A model generated the notes under the pieces. It ran no database searches. It saw only the letters and a program-made list of their open reading frames with translations, and had not been told where the DNA came from. From contig NW_024704873.1 of the NCBI RefSeq assembly GCF_018977255.1, positions 62,001-126,000 on the forward strand: DNA of 64,000 nt, written 5' to 3'. Shown here in pieces: positions 3,761 to 62,032 of this stretch (position 1 is the stretch's first letter; every line of letters begins with the position of its first letter). This DNA is from Callorhinchus milii (Eukaryota). The position numbers and the translations under genes are program-made.

Positions 3761-5982
3761 CATTATTAGCACGTGATGAGGTACTTCAGCCCATTTAACA
3801 TTTACAAGTTGTGAACTGCTGACAGATGCTTGTTATGGCAGAACATCAAGTCATTCCAAATAATAACAGAAACTTCTACAAAACCATGCTACGGTGGGCC
3901 TAATAACTAAAAAACATGACCTGTGGTTTTGCTCAAATAGTCTTACTATGAATTTGAAGAGATGTTACCAGCAATTATTTTACATTTTAAACATTGGTTA
4001 AGCTTCATTAAAACATCATCCTTACAATTGTAAGAATGAAATGAATATAATTATAGCAATAGTAAGACGATATTATTAAAATGTCTTCCATTTTACGGGG
4101 AAGTCAACAGGGGCTGTGTTACGGATATAATCACCCCCATCATAGGAACATGGAATTTCTACCGCTGGCTGAGGCCTGCAAGTGGGAAATGACTTTTGTA
4201 TGGTGAGGCTGGGGGGTAAAGCAGGTCGGAGTGTTTTTGTAAAATAGAATTTGATCATATAAAGCAATGCGCCTCAAAAGTATATTTTCAATCAGTGCAT
4301 ATTACCTGCTATTACATGGATTGGAAACATCATGACTGACAAAGATAATGGAACATGAGCTGCAAAGTGTCCAAAGCATTGAGATATGCATGTTGAGGAT
4401 TATAATGAGAGAAAGGGGAACATGTGAAATACAAAATAAATATAAATTAGAAATGTGACATTGACTAATAATGAAAGTAAGTGGGCTTGTGGAGATTAGC
4501 AGTGGCATTGCAACACCAGGGAGGATAGAATACGGCTTGGAGAGGTGATGTCATTCTAAACTGGGGTAATTATTTGTAGTTTTAAAATAATTACAAAGGA
4601 AGTAAAATGTACTTTTAAAAATATATTTTGTAACAATGAACTGCGCACTAGCAATTCAAAGTGGGTTTCATCTCATTATGGGTGCTTTCAGCCCTCAGCT
4701 TGTAATGTAAAACTTAAAACGGTGCTCATTTTAATAATCATGGCGAAAAGAAGGCCTGATTCAAGCCATTACTAAAACTTGACCACACCATTTCCAATTT
4801 TCCTATGCAGGCTTCATAAACCTGCCCTCGTATTTAGTCTACTTTTATATTAATCAGCAACCTGTACAACGGCTTTTACAATCGCTGGCGCTTGTACCCC
4901 ACGTGGATTCTAAACCCCAAGTAGCAAAGTGTTATGCTTTATATATTGGCATGCTCTCTTTCATAAATAGCAACGGACTGCGCATTCGCAGTAAATGGAG
5001 AAACATCATCATTATCAACCATGGTCAATCTGATGCGTGATGAAGTCCTCCCTAATCTACCACCATCCCAAGGAAAGCTGTACTGCCTTCCCTGAATATA
5101 CGGTACAGCTATTATTGCAAACACTGCGAGGACATGAACGTAATGCAGATGAGGTGCGGAACTACCTCAATGTAACAGGTTAAATGGAAAGACAGTAATG
5201 GATTCGCAGATATGTAACAAACTTACGAAGGAAATTTAAAATATTCGCCAAGGTCGAGTTTAAAGTTGATCATCAATAGAGCTCAGTAATCAGCACAATG
5301 TCGTGTCTTTCCAGCAAGAAATATTTTGCTTGGATGATGAGTATTCAGTCGAACAATGTCAGAGTGTTTTAGCTTGTGTCTGATTAGACTTTATTGCTTG
5401 ACTCATACAGGGGGACAAGCCCTGCCACAATGTACTGATTTAATTTAATACCTTAAGTCAGGCGCGTGGAAACTTCAGACTGCATGCATTTGTAAATGAT
5501 GGCTTCCTGTATAATCTGTAAGTGAATGGTGCAACATGGTTCATGGAAGAATATGAATATAGTGCATACAGAACTTCGAAACTTGGAGTGCATACTCATT
5601 CAATGTCATTTAGTCGTAAAGAATGTGGCAGCATGTGGCCTGGCCAGCCGAGTGGAACCGTCATTGGCCGACGAGTATCGACCCGTTTCCAGCCAGGCCA
5701 AGATTGAACAAAATTTAATATGGCATTGGCACTTTCACTGGGACTGCCACTGAGACCATTGGGATCACTAGACAACAATTCTCACCACCAGCTCTACCCC
5801 TAGGGTTGCCTCCTGTCTGGGCTTGAGCCAGACGGTCAAATAGTTGGTTATCTGTGTTTGGGTGGTTGGAATTCATTTGTTTCGAGATCTGGTACTGGTA
5901 TTATGTTGAACATTATGACGGTTATTCTTTGGTTTTTTCGGTAAAGTCACGTATAAAAATAAAATAATAAATTAAATAATAG

Positions 5983-6024
5983 CATACGACTTTTCGATTG
6001 CAACACAAGCAATCATCAGGTATA
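5983..6024 (-). ncRNA. Degenerate hammerhead copy in the inverted arm
   Basis: Minus strand TATAC-CTGAT-GATTGC-TTGTGTT-GCAATC-GAAAA-GTC-GTATG: 3 nt missing from the core and GAAAC>GAAAA relative to 6629-6673. Confidence 0.55.
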
Positions 6025-6628
6025 AGAATAATTCCTGCAGTCACGAAAGCTCCAAAATTAAGATTGAACCACTTCTACGGGGAAGTTCCAAGTTTACCTT
6101 TTTCTCTCTCTCTGGGTTTTTTGTTCTCTCTCTCTGCCTGTATATTTAGTGTAATTTTCTCTGTCTACACTCGTTTTGTATCGTTCTTAGGTTCTGCTCT
6201 GTCTGTGTGTCTCCGTTCCTCTTGTTTTTTATGTTTTGTCTTTCTTTGGAATTTCACACTTAAATTCTAACTTAGCAATCTTTGAAATACGTAATCGACC
6301 AGGCAATGCGTTAATTGTGTGTTGACCGACTCTCTGTGTCGTTTTACATAACATTTCGATACTTTGCTAGGTTATTTAATTTAGTGTGTTCTGTCTCCCT
6401 CTAAGCCTGCTTACCTTACTCCCCTCCCTTCGTACTCATTGACATGTAAATGTTTTCCCTACCCCCTCCCTCTCTCTGCCTCCGCCCCCTCTGTCTATTT
6501 AAGGCCACCCCACAGAGACGATCACCTCTCTCTGTACCTGGGTTGCTCTCTCTATGTATCTTGGTGATATCTGTCTGCTTATATGTCTGTCTATAGTTTT
6601 CTGGTTATATTCTATGTCGCTATTTCAT

Positions 6629-6673
6629 TATACCTGATGATGATTGCTTGTGTTGCAATCGAAACGTCGTATG
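6629..6673 (+). ncRNA. Minimal type-I hammerhead ribozyme (PLE-type, palindromic helix III)
   Basis: TATAC-CTGATGA-T-GATTGC-TTGTGTT-GCAATC-GAAAC-GTC-GTATG: intact CUGAUGA/GAAA core, 6-bp stem II, stem I TATAC/GTATG, loop-less ACGT helix III. Predicted cleavage after C6668. Confidence 0.8.
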
Positions 6674-8634
6674 CTATTATTTAATTTATTATTTTTTCTT
6701 TATACGTGACTTTACCGAAAAAACCAAAGAATAATTCCTGCAGTCACGAAAGCTCCAAAATTAAGATTATGACGGTTGTAACTCCACCGTTTGGACAGAT
6801 CTCGGCTGACGAATACATGTTCTGGGAAGAGACCGGCAACCCTAACTACCACTCAGATCAATGGGCCTAGAGGGACTACTTACGGAACAACCAAAACTAC
6901 CAACAGGACCACTATATTGGTTGTGTGACATCATTATGTGATGTGTGCTGTGTGTGTAACTTGCATGTTATTTGTCATCATCCTCTTCATTGTCATATGT
7001 TTTGGTTTTTTCACCATAGTCAGTACGGTAGTTCTAATGGTCCCGATAGTCTTAAGTGATAAGAAGGGTCGTGCAGGCATCAGTGGCAGTGGTGCTGGTG
7101 GTCTCGGTGATAGATCTGGTGGTTCAGGTATTCCAAGTGGTAGTCTGGGAGGTCTCAGTGGTGGTCAGTGATCGGCTCTGATACCAGCTGACCAATATAA
7201 ATCAGAAACGCCATTGAATAATGTATGGCTGACACCTAGTGCATGGAATTGGCGCAATTCTACCTTGAATCCAGTCTGTGTGCTGCTATAATGTGCCATT
7301 TGGGAAAGTGCACTCCAGCTAGTGGTCTCATTAACCCATATGTGCAGACATTAACGTTGTCATTACCTTATATGTGTTAGTTTCTCCCGATCATATTTTG
7401 GACATTTTTTAATTTGTTTATTCATTTTTTATTTTGCTTGGTTGTGAGGTTTTCACTTGCTCGGTATTTGTGTGTTGGGTTTCTTTAAAGCCGTGTGTAG
7501 CCAACCGCGTATATGGGATTTGATCCTGATATATACTTAATTAACAGCTTTGTGGAATTCGGTTGGCATGAATACTAATATATAAACACCCAGCTCTGTC
7601 ATTCTGTGACTCTGTGATTCTGTGATTAACGCGGCATGGATTGGTTGAAGTGCGTCACGTGACCGCAAGCAAGAGACGGGTGAGTAACTTACAGTATCAC
7701 CTTCTTCTTTTGCATCTCCACTGCATCTGGCCATAACGAAAGGATGCTCTGAATTTGGGGTGGCATGGGGGGAATATGGGTCAAAAAGGTAGCACACAAA
7801 TAAAGCACAATATCTTGGCATGCCCTCTCAGCGTTCGCTAAGCAGGTCACGACCACACAAAGTTATTGACAAAATTCAAGCCAAGGCAGAATAATGGCCC
7901 AAACACTTGGACCGGATGCAACAGTTGTGAAATATGACAGTTAAAGGAAGTGATGGTGTGGTGTTTTGAGTAACATCATCTGTGAACGAGTGTTCACCAT
8001 AACACAATTTATGGAAATTACAATATTTCCTATATGTATCTTGACGAAACTTTCAGGGGCTTCATGGTTATCTGGTTTGCACACAGCTTGGCACGCCAAA
8101 GAATTGGCATTCGTGGCAATAAAAATGGCAAATGCATACCGCCTTCCTTTAAATGAAGCCCAAGGTTACATTTATTCGTGGAAAAACCTTTCATTCCATA
8201 AGACCTAGGATTAATGTCACGACATCCAATTACACCACTGTCATGACATGATGAGAAAAGGGGATTTGTTTACACACAGATCATGATTCATTACAATGTA
8301 AATTAGGTTAATGTTGACTGTGCCAGGATGGCCTTTAATTGTAATAATTATTCATGTTTCCTGTGCGCAAATTAGTCTCTTGAAGACTGTGAATTTGTGC
8401 ATGGCTTGGGGGGGCTTGGGTTTAAAATATCGTCCCTGATAAGCTGCACAGTGAAAAGGATTTTCAGGCTCACTAAGGCACACCAATGCATTAATGAACC
8501 TGTCCTCATTATTAATTGTAAATGAGACAACAATGCACACATTCCCAGCAGCCCCACAGAGTCCATACTCAAGACCTCGCTCAAAGTGATTCCTGCCGCT
8601 CCAATGAACATCGAGGCAGCGCTCAACCCCCATT

Positions 8635-9741: not shown

Positions 9742-10414
9742 AGGGCAGGTGAAGAGGGCAGGTGAAGAGGACAGGTGAAGAGGGCAGGTGAAGAGGGCAG
9801 GTGAAGAGGGCAGGTGAAGAGGGCAGGTGAAGAGGGCAGGTGAAGAGGGCAGGTGAAGAGGGCAGGTGAAGAGGGCAGGTGAAGAGGGCAGGTGAAGAGG
9901 GCAGGTGAAGAGGGCAGGTGAAGAGGGCAGGTGAAGAGGGCAGGTGAAGAGGGCAGGTGAAGAGGGCAGGTGAAGAGGGCAGGTGAAGAGGGCAGGTGAA
10001 GAGGACAGGTGAAGAGGGCAGGTGAAGAGGGCAGGTGAAGAGGGCAGGTGAAGAGGGCAGGTGAAGAGGGCAGGTGAAGAGGGCAGGTGAAGAGGGCAGG
10101 TGAAGAGGGCAGGTGAAGAGGGCAGGTGAAGAGGGCAGGTGAAGAGGGCAGTGAAGAGGACAGGTGAAGAGGGCAGGTGAAGAGGGCAGGTGAAGAGGGC
10201 AGGTGAAGAGGGCAGGTGAAGAGGGCAGGTGAAGAGGGCAGGTGAAGAGGGCAGGTGAAGAGGGCAGGTGAAGAGGGCAGGTGAAGAGGGCAGGTGAAGA
10301 GGACAGGTGAAGAGGGCAGGTGAAGAGGGCAGGTGAAGAGGGCAGGTGAAGAGGGCAGGTGAAGAGGGCAGGTGAAGAGGGCAGGTGAAGAGGGCAGGTG
10401 AAGAGGGCAGGTGA
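9742..10414 (+). repeat. 13-bp minisatellite (AGGGCAGGTGAAG)n, ~52 units
   Basis: Near-perfect tandem array with four GGACAGG variants and one 12-nt unit near 10150. Accounts for the spurious PLHLPSSPALFTC ORFs. Confidence 0.97.
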
Positions 10415-18890: not shown

Positions 18891-20181
18891 CATGCGTGTG
18901 CTTTATTGACCTGCTCAAGGCCTATGATACCATCAGTAGGCCTGGCCTCTGGGTTGCTCTTCGTGCTTTCCGAGTCCCGAACCCACTCATCACCATCCTT
19001 AAGGACCTTCATGATGGTGTGCCTGTACCGGAAGAATTCCCATCTGCTACAGATACAATGGGAGGCTGATCGATGCCCGGGTGCGGTCAAGGGATGGCTC
19101 CCTATTGCTCAACCACGTTATGTATGCCGATGATCTGCTAATGGCTGCTCACTCGGAGGAGGAGTTCGAGGTGCTGCTGCTGAACCTGGAGCTTGCCACC
19201 AACAGGTGGGGCCTTACCATCAGCCCAACCAAAGCTAAGCACCTGCCTGGCTATTTTGTACCATCGGACACTCCACCCCCACAACTCCCAATTGGTGATG
19301 GGGCAGTTGTGGAGACAGTGGAGAGTTTCCCTGGGCAGTGTGCTAATGACCGGCTCCGGTTTAACAGCAGAGGTCTCACTCCGAATCAGTCGAGCTGCAG
19401 TATCTTTTCATTGGCTGCGTAACGCTGTGTGGAAGCTACCTGGTCTATCACTCCGTACGAAGCTTCAGGTCTTCTCGGCCACGGTCATTCCCTCCCTTCT
19501 CTACGCTTGCGAAACTTGGACCCCCTAATGGAACATCTTCGCCGGTTAGAAACATTTAGGCTGGCCTGCCTACGATCCATCCTGGGTTTAACCAGGCTGC
19601 ATTGTGTGAGGAGCTCACAAATCCTTGAAAGATGTGGACAAAGTCCCATCGGTGACCTCCGGCAGGCAAGGCTGCGTTGCCTGAGTCATGTAGCCCGCAT
19701 GGCCAGCCACCGCATGCCTAAACAGCTTTTGTTCCGCCGGATCGAGGGGCTAAACGGGCGCGGCACGGGCTGGAGAAGACATGGAGTGATGTGCTACAGG
19801 AGGACTTGGAGCTGAGTCCACTTGCGGATGACTGGTACCAGCCGTGTCAAGATCGGCCACTGTGGAGGAGGCTCCTGAAGGACGCTACTGGACAGTTGGA
19901 GGCAGTCACCCTCCAACAACAACGGAGGGCGGAGGAGCGACGCTCACAACAACGAGTGGAGCGCCGGGTGGCTAAAGCACAGAAAGTTGCCACAGTAGGG
20001 GCCACAGGTGGTGCATCAGCCAGTCGTCTCAGTCAGTCGACCTGTGACATCTGGGTTTGCCCCGTGACCTCTTGCCAGCGGGTGTTCGACACTTCACGTG
20101 GCCTCAAGGTGCACATAGCCTGGCACAAGCATTGTTGTGACGTCACCGCCACTTAGTGGCGAATGGCGGTTGTTGTTGTTC
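18890..20181 (+). mobile_element. 5'-truncated RTE-clade LINE; frameshifted RT pseudogene with C-terminal C2H2 finger
   Basis: Peptides CFIDLLKAYDTI, MYADD, LLYACETWT, RLRCLSHVARM..RMPKQLLF and CPVTSCQRVFDTSRGLKVHIAWH in shifting frames; (GTT)n tail. Confidence 0.92.
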
Positions 20182-24550: not shown

Positions 24551-24616
24551 ATTGTATAATAATAAATAATATGAATTCCTGCAGTCACGAAAGCGTTAAG
24601 TCAATGTTGCATGCTT
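24551..24616 (+). mobile_element. PLE tail-only micro-insertion
   Basis: ATGAATTCCTGCAGTCACGAAAGC flanked by direct repeat TACAGCAG (24543-24550; 24617-24624). Confidence 0.55.
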
Positions 24617-25812
24617 TACAGCAGTGCAAATACATAAACTATTGCACTCATTTGAAACATACAAAGTAATGCGACATATTAACACGATTCAAATGTAATT
24701 TTTTTTATTGTAGAATATTACTTATATAGGGCACAATACACATCTGGCCAGGGAACAGCATACCAAACAAAAAATGTGTCCAATGCTGTGCTTGCTGTCT
24801 GCGCCATGGCGCAGATCCTCAAAACACAGCAGCCAGTATCGCAAATTGATCTTCCTCGAATTACCCAGCAGCCAGTCACGTGCCGGGAGTTGTGCCCAAC
24901 ACGTGTCCCATCGGTGAGATGACATCGGAGTCAAAGTGTCGAGATATCGTGATGTGTGTGCAGCACCCCAGATGGCAGCATCTTGATGTGGCTCAGCAAG
25001 GCCACAGACACGGGCAGCTGAAGCAGCGACGTTGACCCACGGGGGTACCCGGCAGGACAGAGGGCAGGGCGGGCAAAGAGCTGGCCAGGCAGATCAAAGA
25101 GTGGCTGCCTCTATGGAGCACACGGAGGATTTGTTGCCCGCAACGTGTGCGCCGCCCTTTTGCTCCCTTGCTGTCACTCCCTGGCACAACTTCGAGTGGC
25201 AGCCAGCGCATATTAAGCTCCGGGCGTTTAAACTCGCATCGCCAATTGCTGCGCGTTACCCCGACCGAGCCCACTTTAGCAGCAGCGCCGCTTACTGCAT
25301 CAGCTGATTATTACGAGGCGCATGCTGAATTTCTCGAGTCATTTTTTGTTATGCAAAACTCTCAGCTAATATTACCATTGCTGTTAGTCGTCTCCAAAAA
25401 CATCCATACATTCCCCCAGCAAGTAATGATGTGTTCCTTCAGTGTATTATTACATTCGAGTCTTCATGGCGAAATAAACATGTCTTTATGGCCTGTTATA
25501 TGGTTTGAACAATTCGTGTACACGTTTGTTCCGGACTGCAGTGTGGTGGCTGTTTGCCCTCTATAGCAGGTGCCTACTGCTACTGCACGAGTAGATTGTG
25601 TGTGCCGAGGGTTCCCATGAGGACATATTTTTATACCTTTAGACACCGTAACCTAATTTCAAAGTTGGCTACTCTCGCTGCTATACGGCTAACGATTGGC
25701 GACTGGTTACATTGAGAGATATTAGAACCTGGTGTGTATTCGTTATTTCATTTTGGTAAACCCATAATACACTTAGTGCACTTGATCTTTTTTATTATAA
25801 TGGTTGATTTAT

Positions 25813-26000
25813 TTTGATTTAAAGCTTTCGTGACTGCAGGGATTCATCTTCTTGGTTCTTTCGGTAAAGTCACGTAGAAGGGAAGTAATAAAATAATAAA
25901 AATAAAACATAATAAAATTATTTTATTATGTTAAAATAATTTTATTATGTTTTATTTTATTACTTCCCTTCTACGTGACTTTACCGAAAGAACCAAGAAG
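25813..26000 (-). mobile_element. Palindromic PLE tail insertion
   Basis: 13-bp TSD ATGGTTGATTTAT (25800-25812; 26001-26013); arms CATCTTCTTGGTTCTTTCGGTAAAGTCACGTAGAAGGGAAGTAATAAAATAA and its reverse complement. Confidence 0.8.
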
Positions 26001-27564
26001 ATGGTTGATTTATCTTGAATAAATTAAAGCTCACTGTCTGATCTAAATTCTAGAAGTGTTGTGTGATTATTGTATGATAATTTCAGATCGTGTGCATATT
26101 GTATGTATGTATATTGGACTTCTTTCGCATCGCACGTTGCCAGCTGTGCTTTTGTGTGTGCATTTTATCGTCTTTCCCCGCACCTCCGATTCGCACGGTT
26201 AGCTACGTACGGTGCGAAAGAAGTTCAACATACGCACATAAATTTAAATCTGAGGTAAGGGGGAAGGACAACATTTTACACAACAGTAGCATATGTAGAT
26301 TATATCTGTGGAACAAACCTTCGACCACATATGATGCAGTACAAAACATCTAATGCCTGACCTTGTTATTGCTAACGGCAAAGTCATAACACCATTAAAT
26401 AATCACGCGCCGTGAAAAAAACGTGGATCACCTGAGATCTGTCGGAGGTCATCCGAGCGTCTGTAGTCGGTTTTTTTTTTTGGGGGGGTGGTATTTTATG
26501 ACATATCTGCGAAATCAAAAAGTCTGCGCCTACTGATTTGTTTTGTTGGATGGGTGTGAAAGATTTGTTTTTCTGTTGCCTTTAATTTTGACAACATTAT
26601 CGGTGCTGGGATCTCCCTTGAAGAGATGGGGAAGGGTTGAGCTTGTGTTCGCGAGAGTGAAAATGCGGTCCTGCCCAGCGGGGACAGATCAGCATCTCTT
26701 CTTTGAAACAGAAACCCCACCTTGTGCTTGTTTTAATATACAGTCAAGGTGAGAAGAATCATCGAGGTTTTGGATTCGTTTTTTGCTCTCGCATACTTGT
26801 GTTGTTTCCATAGTGCTCAAACTCACACATTGCCAAACGTAATGTCACGCGCACATAATGCACTCTTGGAAAATATGTACTTTACGGGTAACATTTGCAA
26901 AATTCTCTTTTGTGTGTTTATCAATTCTAAAAAAAAACAGACAACACCTTTTGTTGCTGTACCTTTCGATTAAAACACGCACGGGTATGCAGTGAAAAAA
27001 AAAACCACCGTGGTCACAATGTATGAATATGTTTCCCATCGCTTAAAGTTCCTCTTGAAAATGTAATATGTACAACTATTTAGTTTTCCATGATACGTGA
27101 ATGTACAGCTGCAGAGTTTCATTGTCAGAATGCAGTGATATTCTCTTGAGATGTTCTTCTTAATGTATAAAAATGCTTGATAAGCATTATCCTCAGGCAT
27201 GCTATCTTCTCGGTATGCCCTCGTAGTTTTTAATTTTTGCTTTATGAAGTGTTTTAAGAGCAGAGTGTGATCACGAAATTTACTTTTGTGAAGGATGAGC
27301 ATTGATGGCCAATCTAAAGTTAAGTATTTTATGTTACGCTGTGAATGAGGGCCATTGCCAAACTGTCATCTCTTCTTATTTTTGAGGGCAGTGTTATGCT
27401 TGATTTGTGCACCACTGCCAAAAAACCATCAAAAGAAACTTTAAAATATAGACTTTGGTTCTAAAATGTTTTATTTTCTTCATATTTTTACAATCAACAG
27501 GTTGACAATAAATTCGGATTTCTCGCATGAATATGCATAACAGTTCTACGATGTATTACAATTG

Positions 27565-27730: not shown

Positions 27731-29782
27731 AATCGTAACTTGTATTGGCCAAAAAAATCCTCCTGAAAAAGAGTTGTGAGACTCAGTGAGGCGAATAAAT
27801 TAATATAAATGGCCATTTTCATAGAACAATACTCATGCCTTGTACTGCCAATGTCGACATGGTTACACATGTATGCAGTGTATCTAACAGGTATTGACTA
27901 CAACATGAAAAACACAGCCAGGCTAGAAACACGACGTTCAGCCAAATGAAGTTTATATTATACATTACCAAGTTAATCGTGAAAACCTGCAAGCCTTTTT
28001 TTAAAGTTGGTGCAATGTTTAAACGTCACTGCTATGTTCTGCATCTTGTTAGCGTTTTCATGTAAAAGTGTAAAGTCTCAAATGGTTCATGTAACACAGG
28101 CTTTCTCTGGGCTCTCCTTCGGATACTTGTCCCTTCGTCAGAGCAATTTCCTTGGCCATTGTGAAACGCGGTGCAGTTGACCATATTTATACAAACAGTA
28201 TTCTACAAAACCAGTCGTTATAAATGACGTGCAAGGAGTGTTGCGGCTTGTCAATGTATCATTTGCATATGTGTATCAGGCATGTCTTGACGGATTGACA
28301 CGTGTATCTAAAGAGCTAAACTCACATGGGGCGAGATTCGCAATGCTTACATAAGGGCCTTGACATGAATACAGCTCTGTGTGCATGCGCTGGGTGTAGG
28401 CTGTGGCCAGGTATAACCGTAATTATTTATAGGTTTGCTCTACCCGCACGCACAATGGCATGCTCTCAGTGCCACATTGTATGCAGTGGGACAACACGCC
28501 AAGCTTGCTGTATTTTTCTCAGACGTGTTTACCTTTAAAGATTGATGGATTTTTTTTCTATTTTCCCGGGAGAGGGAGTCATTGGGAGAAGGACTGAGAT
28601 GAGAAATAAGGAGAAGAGGGTGAGAGGGAGAGATTTTTTTTTGTTTACACACAGTTGTGATGTATAAATCTGTCATCCTCAGCCTGGACCCGTGGGCTAA
28701 ATGGATCAGGTTTACCAAGGTGATACAAAGAGGCCACACGGGAAACTCACGTGGCCGTGTGAGCGACCGATCCGTGGACTCCCGCCCCCGCGGGCTTCGC
28801 TTTGGCGGCGCTTCCCACGAAATGGGTTGTTAAAGTAATTTCAAAATAAACTTTGCGGCAGTCAGTCCATCAGAGTCCGCCACGGGTCTCGCGCCGATTG
28901 TAAGATACAACATCCATTAATTTCTGGGACGTACACGAATGTCTTCGTTTGGCGGTGAAGAAGGTAACAACATTATTGTTGTGTTCTTTGTTAGGAGGAT
29001 TTAAAAAAAAACAATTGTTGGTGTGGACTTTGTTGATCGTGTTTTGCCCCAGGATATGCCATTCATATGCGACCACTGGGGTCATTGTCCAACAGCGGTT
29101 CAATGAAAGGAAAATGTTATTTTTTTCAGTCAACATTTATTTCATCGACGTGATAGACTATATTTCTCAACTTAACTCTTCCAAAAGCCACACTTGCCAC
29201 AGCAGTCTACAGGTGCATTAATGCCATCGACACAGAAACCTTGTAAGTTGGTCCTGAAGCAACGACTGCACCAATGGTTGCATAACCTCGTCATTGTCAA
29301 ACTCCCTTTCACGTACAGCTTCTCTCAGAGCTCAGCGCAGATGGGAGACTAAAAGGGGATAGGAGGTATGGGCCGCGTGATGGACGTTCGCAAAACTTCT
29401 GTGTTACATGCAGAGTGTAGACGTGTAATGTCGTGTTGAGACACCCTTTCTTAACAGAACACGGCATTTGCAACTCACCTGAGGTTTCATTTGGTCTCCA
29501 ACAACACGCAGCAGGAGGGAGCACTGGTGACTGACTCTGTCTATTTTCTTGGAAGGCAACTTGTTATCAGATCCTGCATCCCCCGCCCACCCTGCCCCGC
29601 CAAAAAAAGATATCTTCAATACTTTTCCAGAAGAAGTTTGAGACTCGCTTTTTTTTCTTAACTTAAAGAGACTGGGCGTAATGGTGAATTCAAGTTTCGT
29701 TGGCGGTGATCATTCGAGACGAAAACGTATTTCCTTGATATAGGTTCCTGGCTGATAAGGCACTACAAACACAGTCCACATT

Positions 29783-29864
29783 ATATTCTTTGTTCTTTCG
29801 GTAAAGTCACTTTACCGAAAGAACCAAGAATATGAATCCCTGCAGTAACGAAATATTTAAATCG
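29783..29864 (+). mobile_element. Palindromic PLE tail micro-insertion (82 bp)
   Basis: ATATTCTTTGTTCTTTCGGTAAAGT-C-ACTTTACCGAAAGAACCAAGAATAT hairpin plus tail; TSD ACAGT(C/T)CACATT (29771-29782; 29865-29876). Confidence 0.75.
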
Positions 29865-30379
29865 ACAGTTCACATTTTTGGCACTCAATGAGCGTACAAT
29901 TTTTTAAATGCATCATGTCAGGAATTTACTGAATAAACTGTTCCTACACTTATTCTTATGACTGCCAAATTGTGCCTTAATTTGTACTGGCTGGTCATGC
30001 AAACATTGGCTGGAGTTGAATCATCAACGTACTATTTACATCACAATTGTTGTCCTTGACCGCAATATCTAAACATTGCCATGATTAAGAATATTTGAGT
30101 TTGATGATTTAATCAATTTCACTTGCCTTTCGCATTCTCTGAGGACAAATCAAATAGCTCCCTTCTTTTCTAATGTGCAGTTGTACAAGTACACCACCAT
30201 CTTTTATTACGTGACATGTCCACTGGCTCTAAACTGTGGATAAAGTTTTTTTACCGGTATCATGCTTTGGCATGTAGTTTTTTAATATCGAAATCACACG
30301 AACATATTCTGCATATTATCTATATCTTAAATTATTGAAATTTCCTTTTTACATATAAACACGATGTGCCATCATCCAT

Positions 30380-44115: not shown

Positions 44116-44452
44116 AGTTGAGAAGAAAATCACTTTCATGACATGGCTGCTGAAAACCAGAGCCAATTGAGGCAGAGCACATACTGTTGTACTTTTCTCA
44201 CACATTGAGTGAGGGAACTGGTTACATTTTTGTTTAAACTAAAGTTAAAATTAATACAATTGTTCTGGCATTAATATTGACGTGAGTATTCCTAATAAAA
44301 ACGATTAAAAGATTAGTGTGATGGGAGGAAAGGGATATATGGTTTGAAACGATGTTGCATATATTCAAATTTCCACGACTGATATTCTTAGGTTTTTTCG
44401 GTTAAGTCACGTAAGTAAAACATCAAAATAAAAATAAAATAAAAATAAAAAT

Positions 44453-44493
44453 CACGACGTTTCGGAGGCAACACAAGTCTCCGTCATCAGGTG
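44453..44493 (-). ncRNA. Minimal type-I hammerhead ribozyme (intact core)
   Basis: Minus strand CAC-CTGATGA-C-GGAGAC-TTGTGTT-GCCTCC-GAAAC-GTC-GTG. Confidence 0.75.
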
Positions 44494-44617
44494 GGACCGT
44501 CACAGCCGAATTAGCTGCATCAAGTGAATCAATGATTCAAGATGTAATCCCTTATAAGCAAGTTGAAGGGAGGTGGAGAGGGGGGGGGGTTGGAGAGCTT
44601 ATCAGACTGTGGTAGCC

Positions 44618-44935
44618 AATGAATGGAAACGTATCGGGAGGAGGAGGAGCGGTGATCAAAGACTGCACGCAGTGCTCAACACAATGAATGGAAACGTATC
44701 GGGAGGGAGGAGGAGCGGCGATCAAAGACTGCACGCAGTGCTCAACACAATGAATGGAAACGTGTCGGGACGGAGGGTGAGCGGCGATCAAAGACTGCAC
44801 GCAGCGCTCAACACAATGAATGGAGACATGTCGGGACGGAGGGTGAGCGGTGATCAAAGACATCACGCAGTGCTCAACACAATGAATGGAAACGTGTCGG
44901 GACGGAGGGTGAGCGGTGATCAAAGACTGCACGTG
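44618..44935. repeat. 66-bp tandem repeat inside the PLE (5 units left arm; 3 units right arm at ~45495-45670)
   Basis: Unit AATGAATGGAAACGT.TCGGGA.GGAGG..AGCGG.GATCAAAGACTGCACGCAGTGCTCAACAC starting at 44618, 44683, 44749, 44815 and 44881. Confidence 0.9.
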
Positions 44936-45216
44936 GGGATGTTAACACTCGGTGAAGTAAATTAAAATAGTGCCTGTCAGATAAGATGGTCCAAAAAAGT
45001 GTAATTAAGTCTTTTTTGCGTGGTTAATAACATCTTTCCAATGATTACTGAGTTTGTACCCATCATCACGGTTGAAATTATGTCTGTGTTTGTATATTTG
45101 TATGGATTCGTGTACAAACCTTTGATGGTAGCCAGGAGGTTTGCAGAGAACCTTGGTCTCGGAAAAGACAATTTCATGAGAGCCCGCCGAGTTGTAGCAA
45201 TGATCGGCAATGATCG

Positions 45217-45410
45217 GCCGATCATTGCTACAACTCGGCGGGCTCTCATGAAATTGTCTTTTCCGAGACCAAGGTTCTCTGCAAACCTCCTGGCTACCAT
45301 CAAAGGTTTGTACACGAAGCCATACAAATATACAAACACAGACATAATTTCAACCGTGATGATGGGTACAAACTCAGTAATCATTGGAAAGATGTTATTA
45401 ACCACGCAAA
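45217..45410 (+). pseudogene. C-terminal fragment of Penelope GIY-YIG endonuclease domain (mirrored on minus strand at ~45015-45208)
   Basis: Hand translation ADHCYNSAGSHEIVFSETKVLCKPPGYHQRFVHEAIQIYKHRHNFNRDDGYKLSNHWKDVI has the H..H, R..EAI.I and N(F/L)NRD.G..LS..W motifs of PLE endonucleases. Confidence 0.85.
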
Positions 45411-45790
45411 AAGACCTAATTACACTTTTTGGACCATCTTATCTGACAGGCACTATTTTAATTTACTTCACCGAGTGTTAACATCCCCACGTGCATTCTT
45501 TGATCACCGCTCACCTCCGTCCGACACGTTTCCATTCATTGTGTTGAACACTGCGTGATGTCTTTGATCACCGCTCACCCTCCGTCCCGACACGTCTCCA
45601 TTCATTGTGTTGAGCGCTGCGTGCAGTCTTTGATCGCCGCTCACCCTCCTCCCGATACGTTTCCATTCATTGGCTACCACAGTCTGATAAGCTCTCCACC
45701 CCCCCCTCTCCACTCCCTTCAACTTGCTTATAAAGGATTACATCTTGAATCATTGCTTCACTTGATGCAGCTAATTCGGCTGTGACGGTC

Positions 45791-45831
45791 CACCTGATGA
45801 CGGAGACTTGTGTTGCCTCCGGAACGTCGTG
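45791..45831 (+). ncRNA. Hammerhead copy with core mutation (GAAA>GGAA)
   Basis: CAC-CTGATGA-C-GGAGAC-TTGTGTT-GCCTCC-GGAAC-GTC-GTG. Confidence 0.65.
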
Positions 45832-46649
45832 ATTTTTATTTTATTTTATTTTGATGTTTTACTTACGTGACTTACCGAAAAACCTAAGAATATGAATCTT
45901 AGCAGTCACGAAAGCTTCAAATCTAGAATTAAATCACGACTGAATGTGCTGCTGAAGGTCTCTTGGTGATAATACAATATTTGATTCGCATCACAAGCTA
46001 TAATCGGAGGGAAGTAAATGAATCCATCTCATTTCAATTGAATGTCTAGTTTAGTTTGTTATCCTTCCCCTGCACCTCCGATTAGCGTGCTTGGCTTCAC
46101 ACTGCGAAATAAGTATGGCTTGTTGGATTTTTTTTACAAATTTTGAGATCCAAAGTGGAAGTAAGTAGGGAAGGTAAGTCCAGGGAAGCTAGGGAAAGAG
46201 CGGCTCAGATGCTTCTTGTCTCTATCTACGGCAAGCAGAACACACTGTTTTCATTCCCCAAATGAAACTGAACTTATACGGCAACTGAAATCCAGTGTCG
46301 AGCCCACTCATGTCGGCATGGCATATGAACACATGCTGCCACTCGGCAAGCCTTGCGTGACGTCAAGCCTGACCTGGTGTTGACATGGCATTCAGCCACG
46401 TGTGTCCTCAGTATAGGCTGGCACTACTGCCAGCTTTCATTTTGATACGATTCCAGATATATATTGGAAGTACAATAGCACCTCGTTATACGTTATCGTA
46501 AACCTCGGCTGTGCTGAGGTAAAAGGTTCTCTCCATTCAGATTTCCTGTAATTGGGTACGGAATTGTTGTGTAACAATAACCGCATATAAAACCCCGTTT
46601 GTTTTCAAAGGGCATTGATTTAAATGCCTCATATAAGTGCAATGGCAGA

Positions 46650-46820: not shown

Positions 46821-47775
46821 ATACGTGCAGCAGTGCCTTAAAAAACACATAAAAGTTGAGGGAGAGTTATTGTTACTAATAGTTAAGGTATATGTTGCAT
46901 AGTTTAACTGATTAATGTTGCATGTGACATGTAGTTTGTGGAGTTGTAGTGTGATCTTTCACTGCACAAAAAATGTGCTGAAGACCGCACAGACTTAACG
47001 CTTGCTGATACTTTATATGAGCTGTAGTTGCAATGAATTGTCATGAATGCCTATGAATTTAGGGTGGCTGAATCAAAACCTTTATTGAATCAGCTCTCCT
47101 TAAGGTTACGTTCGTTTTAGGTTTATTTGATGTATTAAACGAATTATATTATTCCGATCGGCTAGTTTCCCAGATATTTTACACGGGAGATCCGTGGTGC
47201 TGCTTGAGCACAGCAGCAACTACAAAAACAGTTCAGGACGAGTTCAGGCTTCTTCAGGAATATTGCACATTGAACAAAGAAGGTGTTTGATGACCGTAAA
47301 AGAAACACCCGTGAATCATTAACAGTGCACTCCGCAGAATATTATTACCTCTGGATAAAGAATAAAATGGCTTTACTATCTTAGAAACAATCATTGGTAT
47401 GTTATGCTTATTGCAGCAGAAAATGTATTATACTAAGGGCTGTTCAATTCAGAATTATTTTGTAGAGTATATTTATTGTGTGCATATTTACGATCAATCA
47501 TTACCAAGTTTGCCCCAGAAGACTAAGTTCTTATAAATGTCCTGATCATAGCAGATAGTTACGCATTAGAATTTTGTATCATTTTTTACACATCTCATTG
47601 ATATGGAGTGACAGATATAGGTTGGAGGTGGATTGTCTGATTATGGTTTTTGTTAATTAAAGTCTCCACCAAGATGGAAATACTTTTTTGTGTCATGTGT
47701 TATATAACTAAGAGCATGTTCAGATAAATTAGTACGTTTCACTGATGAGCATAGTGAGGAATGCACCAAACATTG

Positions 47776-48913
47776 CCACCATTTTGAATCTCTGATGACC
47801 TCCCAGCCATACTCATCATACTTCAAGGCATCCAGCAAGGTCTTGAAGCTGTTGTCATCCTCTTTGAGGTGCACCGAGTGAGCCCGGGCAAGAGATGGGT
47901 ATTTGTTACCATTATGGAGCAGCACGGCTTTGAGGCTCCTGGTTGAGCTGTCAATGAGGAGGAGCCACTCATTCTGGTTACAGGCGATTTCGATTGCCTC
48001 GAACAGACTGGTCACATTGTGGCAGAAGCAGAGCCCATCTTGACGGGTTAAGAAGCTGCAAAAAGGTTGGTGAAGCTTCCTCTGATCTGCGACTTGCACA
48101 CTTTTATCCAACAAGTTCCACTGCTTGAGCCTAAAGGTCAAAAGCTCGGCATTGGACTTGGTGAGACCAAGATCTCTGATCAAGGCGTTGAGGTATTTTT
48201 GGTTGGGATAGTATGGGTGTCTCCCCTCAGCTCCACCTCTGAAATTGTCATCTGGATCTACAACGTCTTCCTCACTCTCTGACTTGCTGCTCTCTTCTAA
48301 AGATGGGTGCTCTTTCTCCAGAGGAGTGGGTATGGGGAGCTCATGGCAGTGTGGCACCGGGGCGATGGATGACGGAAGGTGAAAGCAGGTGCATTCTTGC
48401 CAGTCCGACGTTTGGAATGGTCCACCATGGAGAAGTAGCAGTTGCTTGAGTGGTCAGTGGGTTCCTCCAAATTCTTGGGATAGTGAACTTCATGGCTCTC
48501 TTTTCGCCTCTGTACCATCCTACAAAAATACATTTATTTCACCCATAACTAATGTGTAAGAGATTCTCGCAACATTTTTCATATATTATATATTTTTTCA
48601 ATACATTGAAAATTGTAAACATATTAAAATAAAAAACTTTTCCAATTTTTTTAAATTGTAACAAATTTTATAACATAAAATTCCAACAAAAATTGTCCAT
48701 CTTACCTTCCAGAGTTTTTTTGCATTGCTCGCAGGTGAAATGACGTGCCTAGGGTTTGTCTTCATCCCTGACAGGCATGCCGAAATATGCTTTGTAGGCC
48801 TCGCACATCTTAGTAGATGCTTCCACAGAGTACTTTTTCGCTCTTGTCTTGATAAATTGGCCGCAGACATAGCAAAATGCGTATGCCGGATTCTTGCAGC
48901 CTCTTGATGCCAT
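47776..48913 (-). pseudogene. Chapaev transposase pseudogene with one intron (48520-48705)
   Basis: MASRGCKNPAYAFCYVCG..AYFG..KKTLEG^WYRG..EPTDHSSNCYF..LIRDLGLTKSNAELL..RLKQWNLL..IDSSTRSLKAVLLHNGNKYPS. GAAG|GTAAG..TTTTTGTAG|GA splice joins the frame. Frameshifts and truncation present. Confidence 0.85.
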
Positions 48914-57503: not shown

Positions 57504-57919
57504 GGGTTCAAAGCGCAGTAACCACAGCACAAGTCAAAGACAATGAACTAAACAGAAATTCTGAATGTGAGTTGGGCCCATTTGTGGCATGAATAGAACA
57601 AGATTACGTTGTGTGCCGTGCACAACAGGCAGCGGCAAAGTGGCGTCACGGGAGAGTAGAAAATAGGCTGTGGACACGTTTGGTCCATAGCAGCGCTGGC
57701 AAGTAAACAAGCTTTGAGACCGAGCGAGCATATTGACGTCAATCTCAATATTGAACGGATTTGATTTTGAAAGCTTGTGGTAACTGTTCCGTTTGAACTC
57801 CATGCAACAATGTTTAATATGAGTATGATTGAATCATGTATATTGTTACAATACACGATTGGTGAACTCCGAATAACATGCTTGGCTACGTGCGGTGCAG
57901 AAGAAGTTCAACATACATA

Positions 57920-59522
57920 AAGTGAGGGAAAAAAGTTTTTGATCCCCTGCTGATTTTGTACGTTTGCCCACTGACAAAGAAATGATCAGTCTATAATTTT
58001 AATGGTAGGTTTATTTGAACAGTGAGAGACAGAATAACAACAACAAAAATCCAGAAAAACGCATGTCAAAAATGTTATAAATTGATTTGCATTTTAATGA
58101 GGGAAATAAGTATTTGACCCCTCTGCAAAACATGACTTAGTACTTGGTGGCAAAACCCTTGTTGGCAATCACAGAGGTCAGACGTTTCTTGTAGTTGGCC
58201 ACCAGGTTTGCACACATCTCAGGAGGGATTTTGTCCCACTCCTCTTTGCAGATCTTCTCCAAGTCATTAAGGTTTCGAGGCTGACGTTTGGCAACTCGAA
58301 CCTTCAGCTCCCTCCACAGACTTTCTATGGGATTAAGGTCTGGAGACTGGCTAGGCCACTCCAGGACCTTAATGTGCTTCTTCTTGAGCCACTCCTTTGT
58401 TGCCTTGGCCGTGTGTTTTGGGTCATTGTCATGCTGGAATACCCATCCACGACCCATTTTCAATGCCCTGGCTGAGGGAAGGAGGTTCTCACCCAAGATT
58501 TGACGGTACATGGCCCCGTCCATCGTCCCTTTGATGCGGTGAAGTTGTCCTGTCCCCTTAGCAGAAAAACACCCCCAAAGCATAATGTTTCCACCTCCAT
58601 GTTTGACGGTGGGGATGGTGTTCTTGGGGTCATAGGCAGCATTCCTCCTCCTCCAAACACGGCGAGTTGAGTTGATGCCAAAGAGCTCCATTTTGGTCTC
58701 ATCTGACCACAACACTTTCACCCAGTTGTCCTCTGAATCATTCAGATGTTCATTGGCAAACTTCAGACGGGCATGTATATGTGCTTTCTTGAGCAGGGGG
58801 ACCTTGCGGGCGCTGCAGGATTTCAGTCCTTCACGGCGTAGTGTGTTACCAACTGTTTTCTTGGTGACTATGGTCCCAGCTGCCTTGAGATCATTGACAA
58901 GATCCTCCCGTGTAGTTCTGGGCTGATTCCTCACCGTTCTCATGATCATTGCAACTCCACGAGGTGAGATCTTGCATGGAGCCCCAGGCCGAGGGAGATT
59001 GACAGTTCTTTTGTGTTTCTTCCATTTGCGAATAATCGCACCAACTGTTGTCACCTTCTCACCAAGCTGCTTGGCGATGGTCTTGTAGCCCATTCCAGCC
59101 TTGTGTAGGTCTACAATCTTGTCCCTGACATCCTTGGAGAGCTCTTTGGTCTTGGCCATGGTGGAGAGTTTGGAATCTGATTGATTGATTGCTTCTGTGA
59201 ACAGGTGTCTTTTATACAGGTAACAAGCTGAGATTAGGAGCACTCCCTTTAAGAGTGTGCTCCTAATCTCAGCTCGTTACCTGTATAAAAGACACCTGGG
59301 AGCCAGAAATCTTTCTGATTGAGAGGGGGTCAAATACTTATTTCCCTCATTAAAATGCAAATCAATTTATAACATTTTTGACATGCGTTTTTCTGGATTT
59401 TGTTGTTGTTATTCTGTCTCTCACTGTTCAAATAAACCTATTAAAATTATAGACTGATCATTTCTTTGTCAGTGGGCAAACGTACTAAATCAGCAGGGGA
59501 TAAATACTTTTTTCCCTCACTG
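57920..59522 (-). mobile_element. Full-length Tc1 transposon with ~200-bp IR/DR-type TIRs
   Basis: 57920-~58124 is inverted at ~59322-59522; outer and inner DRs GAGGGAAA.AAGT.TTTGA.CCC; TA at 57918-57919 and 59523-59524. Confidence 0.97.
58137..59159 (-). CDS. Tc1-family DD34E transposase, intact, 340 aa
   Basis: Start [10 protein letters not shown] (ATG at 59159); paired-like HTH region; [15 protein letters not shown] and SPDLNPIE motifs with exactly 34 residues between the second D and the E. Confidence 0.97.
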
Positions 59523-61624
59523 TACGTGAAAAATCAAGTCTCAGTCATCCCCCTAGGATTTGTGGGGTCTTCCAATGCCAATTTTCCCTCGTTGAGTTAG
59601 AATTTATGGGAGGCAGCTTGGCCTGATGATCCACGGCAACCATCCACGCAGCAACGCAATGTTTGTCAAGCCTCCGCCAATGATGTCCTCATGCCTAGAA
59701 TCCGTGTTTACAACGAGAATGCACACATGCATTGAGGTTTCATTTATCCTGTCCAGGCATTGTCATTTTGGGGGGGGGGGGGGGTTGGCATGTGGTCGAT
59801 TGCACCTGGAAGTGAGGGCGGCTTCTCGTGAGGCGACCCTGACTCAAGCTGAAAGCGGGCAGATTAAACACGGCGCGTTCATGTCTTCTCGCGCAGTTGG
59901 GCCTCTGGTGAAAGATTCCCACAGAGATTTAACATAAACTGCCAAAGTTTTTAAAAGGACATGTTTTACAAACTACAAGCTGAGAAGAAGCAGTTTTTTC
60001 TGCAACTGATAAATATTTTTTGCAAGTATAAAAGGCACCAAAAATGTCTGCTGAAATGTTGAAGACCACCCACATAAATATCATTCATATTTTGTCACTC
60101 AGCGTTATTCCATGCTGATAAATAATCTGCCAAAGACAACGTGGGCACCTTTGCTCTTGGTGATATATTGGATCACGTGGCAGCAACAGTGGAGGTCGTC
60201 CAATGAGCATGCGTTTTTTTACTCCAACGTAACAGTGGACTCTAAAATAAAATGCATTTCATTTTATGCTTGAGTAAACGGTGGATGTCTTGCCAATATT
60301 CGTATGAATCTGAAAAATATGGGCCTAAATGCAAAATTGCATATGATACGAATGAAAATAGTTTCGGACTGATCCAAAAACGTCAAGGTCACTGGAGATG
60401 GCATAACTACATGGCGTGACTTACATTAATATTACTCATTTGCCGCTGGAGAGTAAAAACAAACAGTCAGTGATTCATATTTATAATATTCAAAATATTT
60501 ACATTTTGTACGTTAACAATAAACATTTGGTATAATCTCAACAAACGAACATACAAAACCTGAGAATCTGAGAACTTAAAAATGTTTCATCCCAAACACA
60601 GCTGTGCTAATTGGGAATGTCCAATCAGCGATCATTCGTGTGACTCAACGAGTTTTCCTACAATTCTGACCTGAGAGGATTGGTTCAAGACAGACAAGGC
60701 GGTTTATAAGCCACCATTATTGTTCGAAGTGGAGTGACCTCCCTGATGTTATGTCATCGCATGCTATTCACTGGCACAGTGCATTCTCACAATCGTCGTA
60801 GAAAAGAAACACTGGAAGTATCCACGAGCTCAGCGGTTTCTCCTGGGTGTGGGGAGCTCACTCCCTGTGCCGTCCTCTCTAAGGCCCAGAAAAGGTATTG
60901 CAGAGTCAGTTATGACCACACACTGAAATGTCACCAACTCGGCACACTCTGCAACCACATCAAATAATCCTCAACTGAAGGTAAAAGATTTCCTCATGCT
61001 ACAATCACCTTGAAATGCACTGCACGGGATTTGTGATGCACATAATCAACTTCACGATGATTACAAAATATGTAAACAATGCTTGAACAAATTTACTAAA
61101 GTTCTGCTTCATATATATGACCTTTATTTTATAACTTTCATATGTTATTTTGGCAAATGTTAGGAAGACAAATACTTTGTATATGAACTTGCAAGTTCAT
61201 GAAAATTGTGAAATTATCAGTAAGAATTGAACAAGCAAATCCAAATGAGATGCGCATTCTATATTTAACAGGCATTTAACAATGCTTCAATTCATCTATG
61301 AAAATCTGTTGTTATGACCATGGTAGGTGCATTGCATGATGTTTGCTTGAGAAGCAATTATTTACATAGAGTATATGATAATTACATGCAAAGTACATAC
61401 TGTTACATTTACGCTACTGATGGGGTACAAACCTGCACAAATAAGACAGAAAAAAGAATCGGTTCTTAAATCAATTACTCCACTTAAATCAATATTGTCA
61501 AATTGCGCTTTTGTGTCCTTTGGTGAAATCTGTGCACCAGGTGAGGTGTGCATCAAAACTGGAGATGAGATCCACTCTGAGGGTGCAGTCCCATGGACCT
61601 ATAACAATAATAATACATTTATTT

Positions 61625-61951: not shown

Positions 61952-62032
61952 TAAATTTCGATTTAAAGCTTTCGTGACTGCAGGGAATTAATAATATTAT
62001 TATTGTATTACTTCCCTTCTACGTGACTTTAC
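61952..62032 (-). mobile_element. PLE tail micro-insertion with inverted junction
   Basis: AAAGCTTTCGTGACTGCAGGGAAT (reverse tail) joined to ATTACTTCCCTTCTACGTGACTTTAC (forward); same subfamily as 25813-26000. Confidence 0.65.

Follow-up and report, generated by a model that had tools for sequence, protein, structure and literature searches.

A short hammerhead-bearing insertion in the genome of Callorhinchus milii raises the question of whether it was copied from a dedicated circular RNA or by the ordinary route of a Penelope-like element (PLE). The insertion occupies positions 5912-6777 of a 64,000-nt stretch (NCBI RefSeq assembly GCF_018977255.1, contig NW_024704873.1, positions 62,001 to 126,000 of the forward strand), which is referred to here as the window and whose numbering is used throughout. 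An earlier note, made from the letters alone, had regarded the element as lacking any open reading frame (ORF) and had proposed a circular or multimeric RNA of about 700 nt, mobilised in trans by PLE proteins, as its template. The analysis reported here identifies the element as a Poseidon-derived insertion that was made by the ordinary PLE route and behaves like a non-autonomous PLE. With slightly better than even confidence, it is further read as a young, dead-end insertion of a non-autonomous mini-Poseidon that was copied in trans from uncleaved linear RNA, the ORF having been lost from approximately codon 47 to beyond the stop codon and the cis-acting ends having been kept.

Anatomy of the insertion

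The element is bounded by a target-site duplication (TSD), ATTATGACGGTT, the two copies of which (5912-5923 and 6766-6777) are identical at 12/12 positions; by comparison, 38 of 200,000 random coordinate pairs in like-sized neighbourhoods had a 12-mer in common. An inverted arm (5922-6025) matches the reverse complement of 6628-6734 at 94.4% over 107 columns, with three substitutions and one 3-nt deletion, and a direct repeat of 42 nt, referred to here as the tail, is 100% identical between 6024-6065 and 6727-6768. The TSD, the inverted 3′ copy, the paired tails, the pyrimidine-rich body, and the intact hammerhead had all been recognized in the earlier note and are retained here, except that the tails are spaced by 703 nt rather than 702 nt. 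The tails and TSD together display no difference over 54 sites, and the GC content of the element is 39%. At this locus, the element amounts to 1.06 direct units with one intact ribozyme; no tandem array with a period of 703 nt is present, and the only tandem repeats within the unit are two short AT-rich or 12-nt arrays. The features are as follows.

5912-5923, + strand: left TSD of 12 nt, the final 2 nt of which fall within the inverted arm
5922-6025, − strand: inverted arm, a copy of the hammerhead-to-site-1 region 6628-6734
6024-6065, + strand: 5′ copy of the tail (42 nt), matching the 3′ copy at every position
6042-6087, + strand: degenerate N-terminus of a Poseidon ORF, equivalent to codon 33 to approximately codon 47 of the Anolis protein P0021 and interrupted by a single frame break near 6069
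6088-6627, + strand: non-coding pyrimidine-rich body, probably the 3′ untranslated region (UTR) and pseudo-long terminal repeat (pseudo-LTR) of the parent family
6449-6517, + strand: C-rich stretch with a TATA-like TATTTAA (6496-6502), resembling the region upstream of the hammerhead in the PLE copy at 40 kb
6629-6673, + strand: intact minimal type I hammerhead of the PLE type, with predicted cleavage after C6668
6705-6748, + strand: 7-bp stem predicted between 6705-6711 and 6742-6748, by which the region after the ribozyme is linked with the tail
6727-6768, + strand: 3′ tail copy, ending at the equivalent of codon 40, within the reverse transcriptase (RT) start window of Anolis Poseidon (codons 37-40)
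6766-6777, + strand: right TSD, starting with ATT, which overlaps the element end

In hammerhead position numbering, the ribozyme at 6629-6673 combines an intact core with a helix I of 5 bp, a helix II of 6 bp, an extra nucleotide after A9, and a palindromic ACGU. It presents all of the traits listed for minimal PLE ribozymes by Cervera and de la Pena, namely a long helix II, a helix I of 4-5 bp, an extra base after A9, G10.1-C11.1, and a palindromic 15.2-16.2. Across four copies in the window, three of the six helix II pairs are changed on both sides and 82.7% of cells pair; the covariation score was reached by 0/500 shuffles and by no slid register, in a set of four copies that are few and related. 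Rfam scans gave no match to the hammerhead at gathering or E-value thresholds, one returning no match and the other two chance matches. The hammerhead copy in the inverted arm is disrupted, a point overlooked in the earlier note: 3 nt are deleted behind its core, and helix III carries a C-to-A change. Both ribozyme arms carry a TAA in frame with the ribozyme ATG, and in the predicted fold of a read-through RNA the intact ribozyme is sequestered in a duplex with the inverted arm.

The body between the tails has a pyrimidine content of 69% (6093-6627), compared with 65% for the 3′UTR of a neighbouring copy, which is 376-496 nt long. Its C-rich stretch at 6449-6517 scored 42 against the upstream region of the 40-kb copy, the maximum among 614 other tiles being 39, and 0 and 2 of 300 shuffles were as good; from its sequence, the stretch may have a promoter role. 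Comparisons of the body with the upstream regions of the 45-kb, 44-kb, and 20-kb copies were non-significant (38, 40, and 19 of 300 shuffles as good, respectively), and nothing in the window matches the 5′ two-thirds of the body. Downstream of the ribozyme, both arms of the predicted 7-bp stem recur among the best-kept motifs in the PLE copies of the window, the fold being weak on energy alone (z = -1.6). Together with its counterparts in neighbouring copies, this stem is a candidate protein-binding or RT-positioning element. The possibility that the flanks are the inverted ends of a host transposon was ruled out (21/488 tiles equally good), and an intron between ribozyme and tail was dropped, as judged by eye, since its donor lacks conservation among the copies.

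Coding remnant and Poseidon relatives

A profile of the 3′ end identified seven other PLE loci in the window, at 20.6, 24.6, 25.8-26.0, 29.8, 40.1, 44.4-45.9, and 62.0 kb, and the five of these that were aligned are 75-84% identical to the end of the element. The locus at 44.4-45.9 kb retains the final approximately 65 ORF codons, a GIY-YIG C-terminal remnant, for which seven protein relatives were found; five of these are named lamprey proteins, and four span nearly the whole query at 78-84% identity. The closest named relatives of this insertion (44374-45943) are lamprey and elephant-shark proteins. One of the relatives, P0006, has an RT and a GIY-YIG match slightly below the Pfam cut-off, and a search with it recovered full-length ORFs including P0021, an 836-aa protein of Anolis carolinensis. 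Because its start fits the published geometry, P0021 appears to be the ORF of the Anolis Poseidon element PAc or a close copy. In PAc, the ORF starts at helix II, the ribozyme cut lies 26 nt after the start codon, and reverse transcription starts at +111 to +118 (Frangieh et al., PMC11167929). In the element, likewise, the ATG is formed by A9-U-G10.1 (6640-6642), 26 nt ahead of the cut at C6668.

The tail and the adjoining 6066-6087 translate as HESSKIKIE, one extra base, and HFYGEV, in the register of the N-terminus of full-length Poseidon ORFs. The full-length relatives carry HES and then LYGE close to the N-terminus, and the tails of the element and of neighbouring copies read SHES(F/S)K. 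With a 15-column profile from 23 N-termini and one frame shift allowed, the stub was the best of 127,880 positions; the seven columns past the shared tail were matched as well at 16/127,920 positions, and the same register scored +12 at the stub versus -9 at the 3′ flank. The description of the element as ORF-less is thus not confirmed. Its companion claim, that no RT or endonuclease remnant is present, is borne out: a whole-ORF hidden Markov model (HMM) gave at most -0.8 bits on the element, compared with approximately 60 bits on the control at 44.4-45.9 kb, and all matches from tblastn of 126 proteins against the element had E above 5. The longest stop-free frame is 95 aa, and a single ORF with an RT and, at its C-terminus, a GIY-YIG domain is absent. 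Independent support for the ORF stub comes from geometry, that is, from the ribozyme ATG 26 nt before the cut and from the end of the element at the codon 40 equivalent. Judged from its sequence, the unit is an ORF-deleted Poseidon, in which the ORF start is fused at about 6088 to a non-coding stretch of approximately 540 nt, the probable 3′UTR, the 3′ third of which is similar to the pseudo-LTR of a neighbouring PLE.

Template, insertion, and rival explanations

Both arms of the insertion are continuous across the ribozyme cut site, and the template was therefore uncut or rejoined rather than a cleaved linear monomer. The direct arm spans 745 nt, which exceeds one unit, and stops a few bases from the upstream RT start site (approximately 3% by chance under uniform truncation). 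The template was thus longer than one unit, and to this extent the proposal of the earlier note stands. A circular or multimeric dedicated RNA is not indicated, because a tail, a body, a second tail, and an inverted arm already make up the ordinary Penelope layout; this layout demonstrates a longer-than-unit template and not a circle, and a linear RNA suffices. Active Penelope copies carry a 34-bp repeat at the ORF start and often also at the 3′ end, and their transcript starts in the upstream pseudo-LTR. Furthermore, PAc uses unprocessed RNA in vitro, its ribozyme mutants integrate normally, and ATT is the motif that it prefers to cut (Frangieh et al., PMC11167929); the TSD of the element begins with ATT. 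Cleavage is dispensable for the Anolis element, and, according to the same study, RNA-seq reads ending at its cut site were absent (PMC11167929). Since the element encodes no protein, it must have been inserted in trans, as the earlier note had proposed, and its derivation from a PLE is likewise supported.

On this basis, a sequence of events may be proposed. A master copy consisting of pseudo-LTR, tail, ORF stub, 3′UTR, hammerhead, and tail would have been transcribed from the upstream pseudo-LTR into a linear RNA with a length of no less than 1.06 units, or of 1.2 units if one and the same molecule also templated the inverted arm; this RNA, by analogy with the Anolis element, was presumably uncut. 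The RT/GIY-YIG protein of another Poseidon copy would then have cut the two strands of an AT-rich site at positions separated by 12 nt, as suggested by the Anolis biochemistry. In repeat coordinates, the starts of the two arms lie at 6734 and 6768, a distance of 34 nt, and the arms overlap the TSD by 2 and 3 nt. One strand would have primed at the downstream start site, 6768, with copying proceeding for 745 nt until the upstream tail was reached; the second strand would have primed 34 nt further upstream in the repeat, at the equivalent of 6734, and given rise to the inverted arm, in a manner analogous to the twin priming of L1. The two products would have been joined at a 2-nt microhomology. 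Alternatively, as the palindromic neighbours hint, the inverted arm could be the product of fold-back synthesis and a later deletion. The resulting copy would be unable to make a unit circle itself, as its one intact ribozyme would be buried in a duplex with the inverted arm in read-through RNA, and the locus itself looks like a dead end.

The principal question is whether the loss of the ORF preceded this insertion. Both tails lack the ATG that is present in four of six neighbouring tails, the ribozyme arms share the TAA, and the stub frame is broken in spite of the absence of differences in tails and TSD; the probability that this break is a post-insertion event is 0.07-0.24. These points suggest that the template had decayed, and was non-coding, before the insertion took place, as expected of a mini-Poseidon that was already non-autonomous. 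Several observations weigh against this reading. Absence of the ATG could instead characterise a parent subfamily in which translation begins at another place. In addition, the stub is short, its profile columns were picked after the resemblance had been noticed, pairwise alignment is significant for one of seven relatives (P0021 residues 33-46, 3/1000 shuffles), and the ribozyme-to-tail stretch of the 3′ copy aligns to the N-terminus of none of the seven. An unanchored N-terminal HMM over 1,284 six-frame tiles found none significant, with the element outside the top 20, and the stub ends before +172, which the Anolis element requires in vitro. The pseudo-LTR match is modest (nhmmer E 0.72), and against the upstream region of the 45-kb copy the body is non-significant, 160/602 tiles being as good. 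No second copy of the body or junction is present in the 64-kb window, and three weak tests for sister copies were likewise negative: a pattern scan of bacterial genome contigs, where host contamination may occur, gave 0; a search with the minus-strand frame of the body gave no candidate; and a search with the junction-spanning frame against 1.84 billion proteins gave no sister copy. The sole match of that frame, an unrelated repeat protein of 1,788 aa, was rejected as compositional.

The lack of a second copy of the body and junction is also what would be seen if no 703-nt family existed and the ORF had been lost once, either because the RT jumped from the 3′UTR to about codon 47 on a full-length Poseidon RNA or because the ORF was deleted after insertion. 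This explanation, which we regard as unlikely but deserving serious attention, accords with a layout that is that of an ordinary full insertion minus its ORF, with the many Adineta Penelope copies disabled by microhomology deletions, and with the erratic junctions of neighbouring PLE copies. The earlier note had named PLE ends joined by a one-off deletion as the outcome that would overturn its proposal, and half of this is found, in that an ORF start is joined to a probable 3′UTR. Nevertheless, such a deletion would have to take out almost exactly the ORF and spare approximately 20 nt past the RT start site, an argument open to selection bias, and the shared loss of the ATG and the frame break suggest decay preceding a young insertion. 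Improbable in our estimation is a retrozyme cycle, in which a tandem 703-nt unit would be cut by dimeric hammerheads, ligated to a circle, and reverse-transcribed for 1.2 rounds by the Poseidon protein. The stop of the direct arm near the upstream start site would suit a pair of primers acting on a single template that exceeds one unit, the cut site is crossed by both arms, the ribozyme at the 3′ side has an intact structure and shows covariation, the unit has the size of fish retrozymes, and a circular template has previously been proposed for PLEs; however, a linear partial-tandem RNA explains all these points equally well. Moreover, minimal hammerheads are poor cleavers, and one of nine Xenopus dimers was cleaved; the Anolis data cited above also count against a cycle that depends on cleavage, and the fold of the 703-nt circle is not superior to those of shuffled sequences (z -1.0, 5/40 as good), an uninformative to negative outcome. 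The arms differ at four events in 104 sites versus none in the tails, a contrast that is non-significant (Fisher p 0.30), cannot tell a circle from a tandem template, and is compatible with post-insertion decay. Least probable of all is a capture, in which two PLE ends would have enclosed host or unrelated DNA, now the greater part of the body, and this DNA would have been mobilised in trans. Non-coding captures between pseudo-LTRs with TSDs are described in Adineta, and the 5′ two-thirds of the body is unmatched in other PLE copies, but the body opens with ORF codons, closes in pseudo-LTR-like sequence, and matches the Poseidon 3′UTR in length and composition.

Known systems, neighbouring loci, and significance

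The assignment to Poseidon rests on a minimal type I hammerhead, an ORF-start tail of 30-40 nt, a 3′ end at the internal RT start site, an inverted 5′ arm, a TSD within the range of about 8-12 nt, and homology to an ORF start and pseudo-LTR, the stub being detected by the anchored profile and weak when unanchored. The Penelope/Poseidon PLEs (Anolis PAc, Drosophila virilis Penelope, and Adineta Pen2/Pen2a) share with the element a minimal hammerhead that overlaps an ATG 26 nt before the cut, a tail of 30-40 nt at both the ORF start and the 3′ end, a 3′ end at codons 37-40, a TSD starting with ATT, and an inverted 5′ arm that overlaps the direct part by approximately 10 nt. Unlike them, the element has no RT or GIY-YIG domain, retains only a broken ORF stub, and has a unit of 703 nt instead of approximately 3 kb. 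Adineta Pen2a has an inverted pseudo-LTR, an ORF between direct pseudo-LTRs, a 31-bp tail, ORF codons in the pseudo-LTR and tail, and a 9-bp TSD, and an internally deleted PLE derivative with a 10-bp TSD, as well as non-coding captures mobilised in trans, has been described in the same host. The layout of the element, an internal deletion with TSD, and mobilisation in trans therefore have precedent in Adineta and Penelope. The non-autonomous PLEs of Chlamys (such as MRC1) and the deleted Adineta Pen2 copies are likewise protein-less, form pseudo-LTRs, and have ends in common with autonomous families; by contrast, they belong to another clade or host, and MRC1 is an active multi-copy family, whereas the element is known here from one copy in the window.

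Retrozymes provide the second comparison. According to the preprint of Li, Clavereau, and Pollet (2026; 10.64898/2026.07.22.740005), animal and vertebrate retrozymes derive from PLE pseudo-LTR ends, their consensus lengths range from 51 to 972 bp and average 650 bp among ray-finned fish, monomers are found in dispersed form, and cleavage was observed in one of nine Xenopus dimers. A length of about 700 nt, which the earlier note considered to exceed that of the usual monomers, is therefore not unusual. The element resembles these retrozymes in being non-coding, in its type I hammerhead, in its origin from PLE ends, and in a length near the fish mean. Their active class requires two or more successive units that bear complete hammerheads, which this locus lacks, and the element would count as a monomer; it additionally displays an ORF stub, a TSD, and both RT start sites, which the available text of the preprint does not analyse. 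With the retrozymes of Cervera and de la Pena (2020), it has in common a type I hammerhead, a GC content below 50%, a TSD longer than 4 bp, and a suspected dependence on PLEs. Those retrozymes, however, have canonical ribozymes with loop contacts, tandem units of 150-450 bp, and demonstrated circles, whereas the element has a minimal ribozyme without loop 3 and a 703-nt unit that is non-tandem at the locus. The same authors state that minimal hammerheads cleave poorly and propose a circular template for PLEs. Further sources on PLEs and retrozymes include PMC4209133, PMC3846280, PMC8557442, PMC7229834, PMC8969392, and PMC2377424. No published description of this 703-nt family was found; Repbase, Dfam, and the supplementary consensus tables of the preprint may hold it.

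Two-armed insertions recur in the window at 5912-6777, 25800-26015, 29771-29875, 44374-45943, and 61956-62032, and TSD-like repeats 9-18 nt in length accompany the first four. In four of these five loci, the 62-kb locus being the exception, model position 105-111 marks the end of one arm and 139-142 that of the other. One of these ends is close to the ORF ATG and the second lies 3-7 codons beyond HES, which gives one arm per RT start site. The insertion at 44374-45943 is a fold-back palindromic Poseidon with 66-bp tandem repeats in its 3′UTR, hammerheads on both arms, and a 9-nt TSD. In this neighbouring subfamily (45797-45940 and 44380-44487), the ribozyme ATG opens a frame of merely 11 codons, and HES shares its frame with a second ATG, located where the tail begins, a difference from the Anolis element. 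Very small PLE footprints are also present, namely a two-armed palindrome of approximately 90 nt (29771-29875) and a tail-only insertion (24564-24607). A literature search found no paper on a lamprey Poseidon and none relevant to twin priming in Penelope. Elsewhere in the window, an apparently intact transposon at 57915-59527, which we take to be of the Tc1 type, has an open transposase frame (58137-59276, − strand) and 207-nt inverted ends at 95.7%; a frame-broken LINE remnant, presumably RTE-like, lies at 19015-20156; an open frame of 266 aa at 47653-48453 presumably corresponds to a common fish DNA-transposon protein; and a very homogeneous 13-bp minisatellite occupies 9742-10414 (51.8 copies, 98% matches).

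The element is a known kind of parasite of a parasite and not a new class of circular-RNA element. It provides a clean worked example, of modest value, of how a retrozyme-sized unit can arise from Poseidon by loss of the ORF, with ends that match the RT start geometry of the lizard element. Its short natural RNA could also serve to probe mobilisation in trans and the role of ribozyme cleavage or circularisation. As one more PLE derivative it is unsurprising to the specialist, and it would gain weight if the junction proved to be multi-copy or if circles were found. It is doubtful, in our view, that the element represents an amplifying minimal-hammerhead retrozyme of 703 nt that arose by deletion of the Poseidon ORF down to the RT-loading site and propagates by way of a circular RNA, with a single template, running across the ligation junction, having served both RT start sites in this insertion. 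If this were true, the locus would attest directly, at the genomic level, to the mobilisation of a retrozyme in trans by a PLE protein; it would also be a missing link connecting PLEs with retrozymes and would delineate the minimal PLE cis-element in a natural setting.

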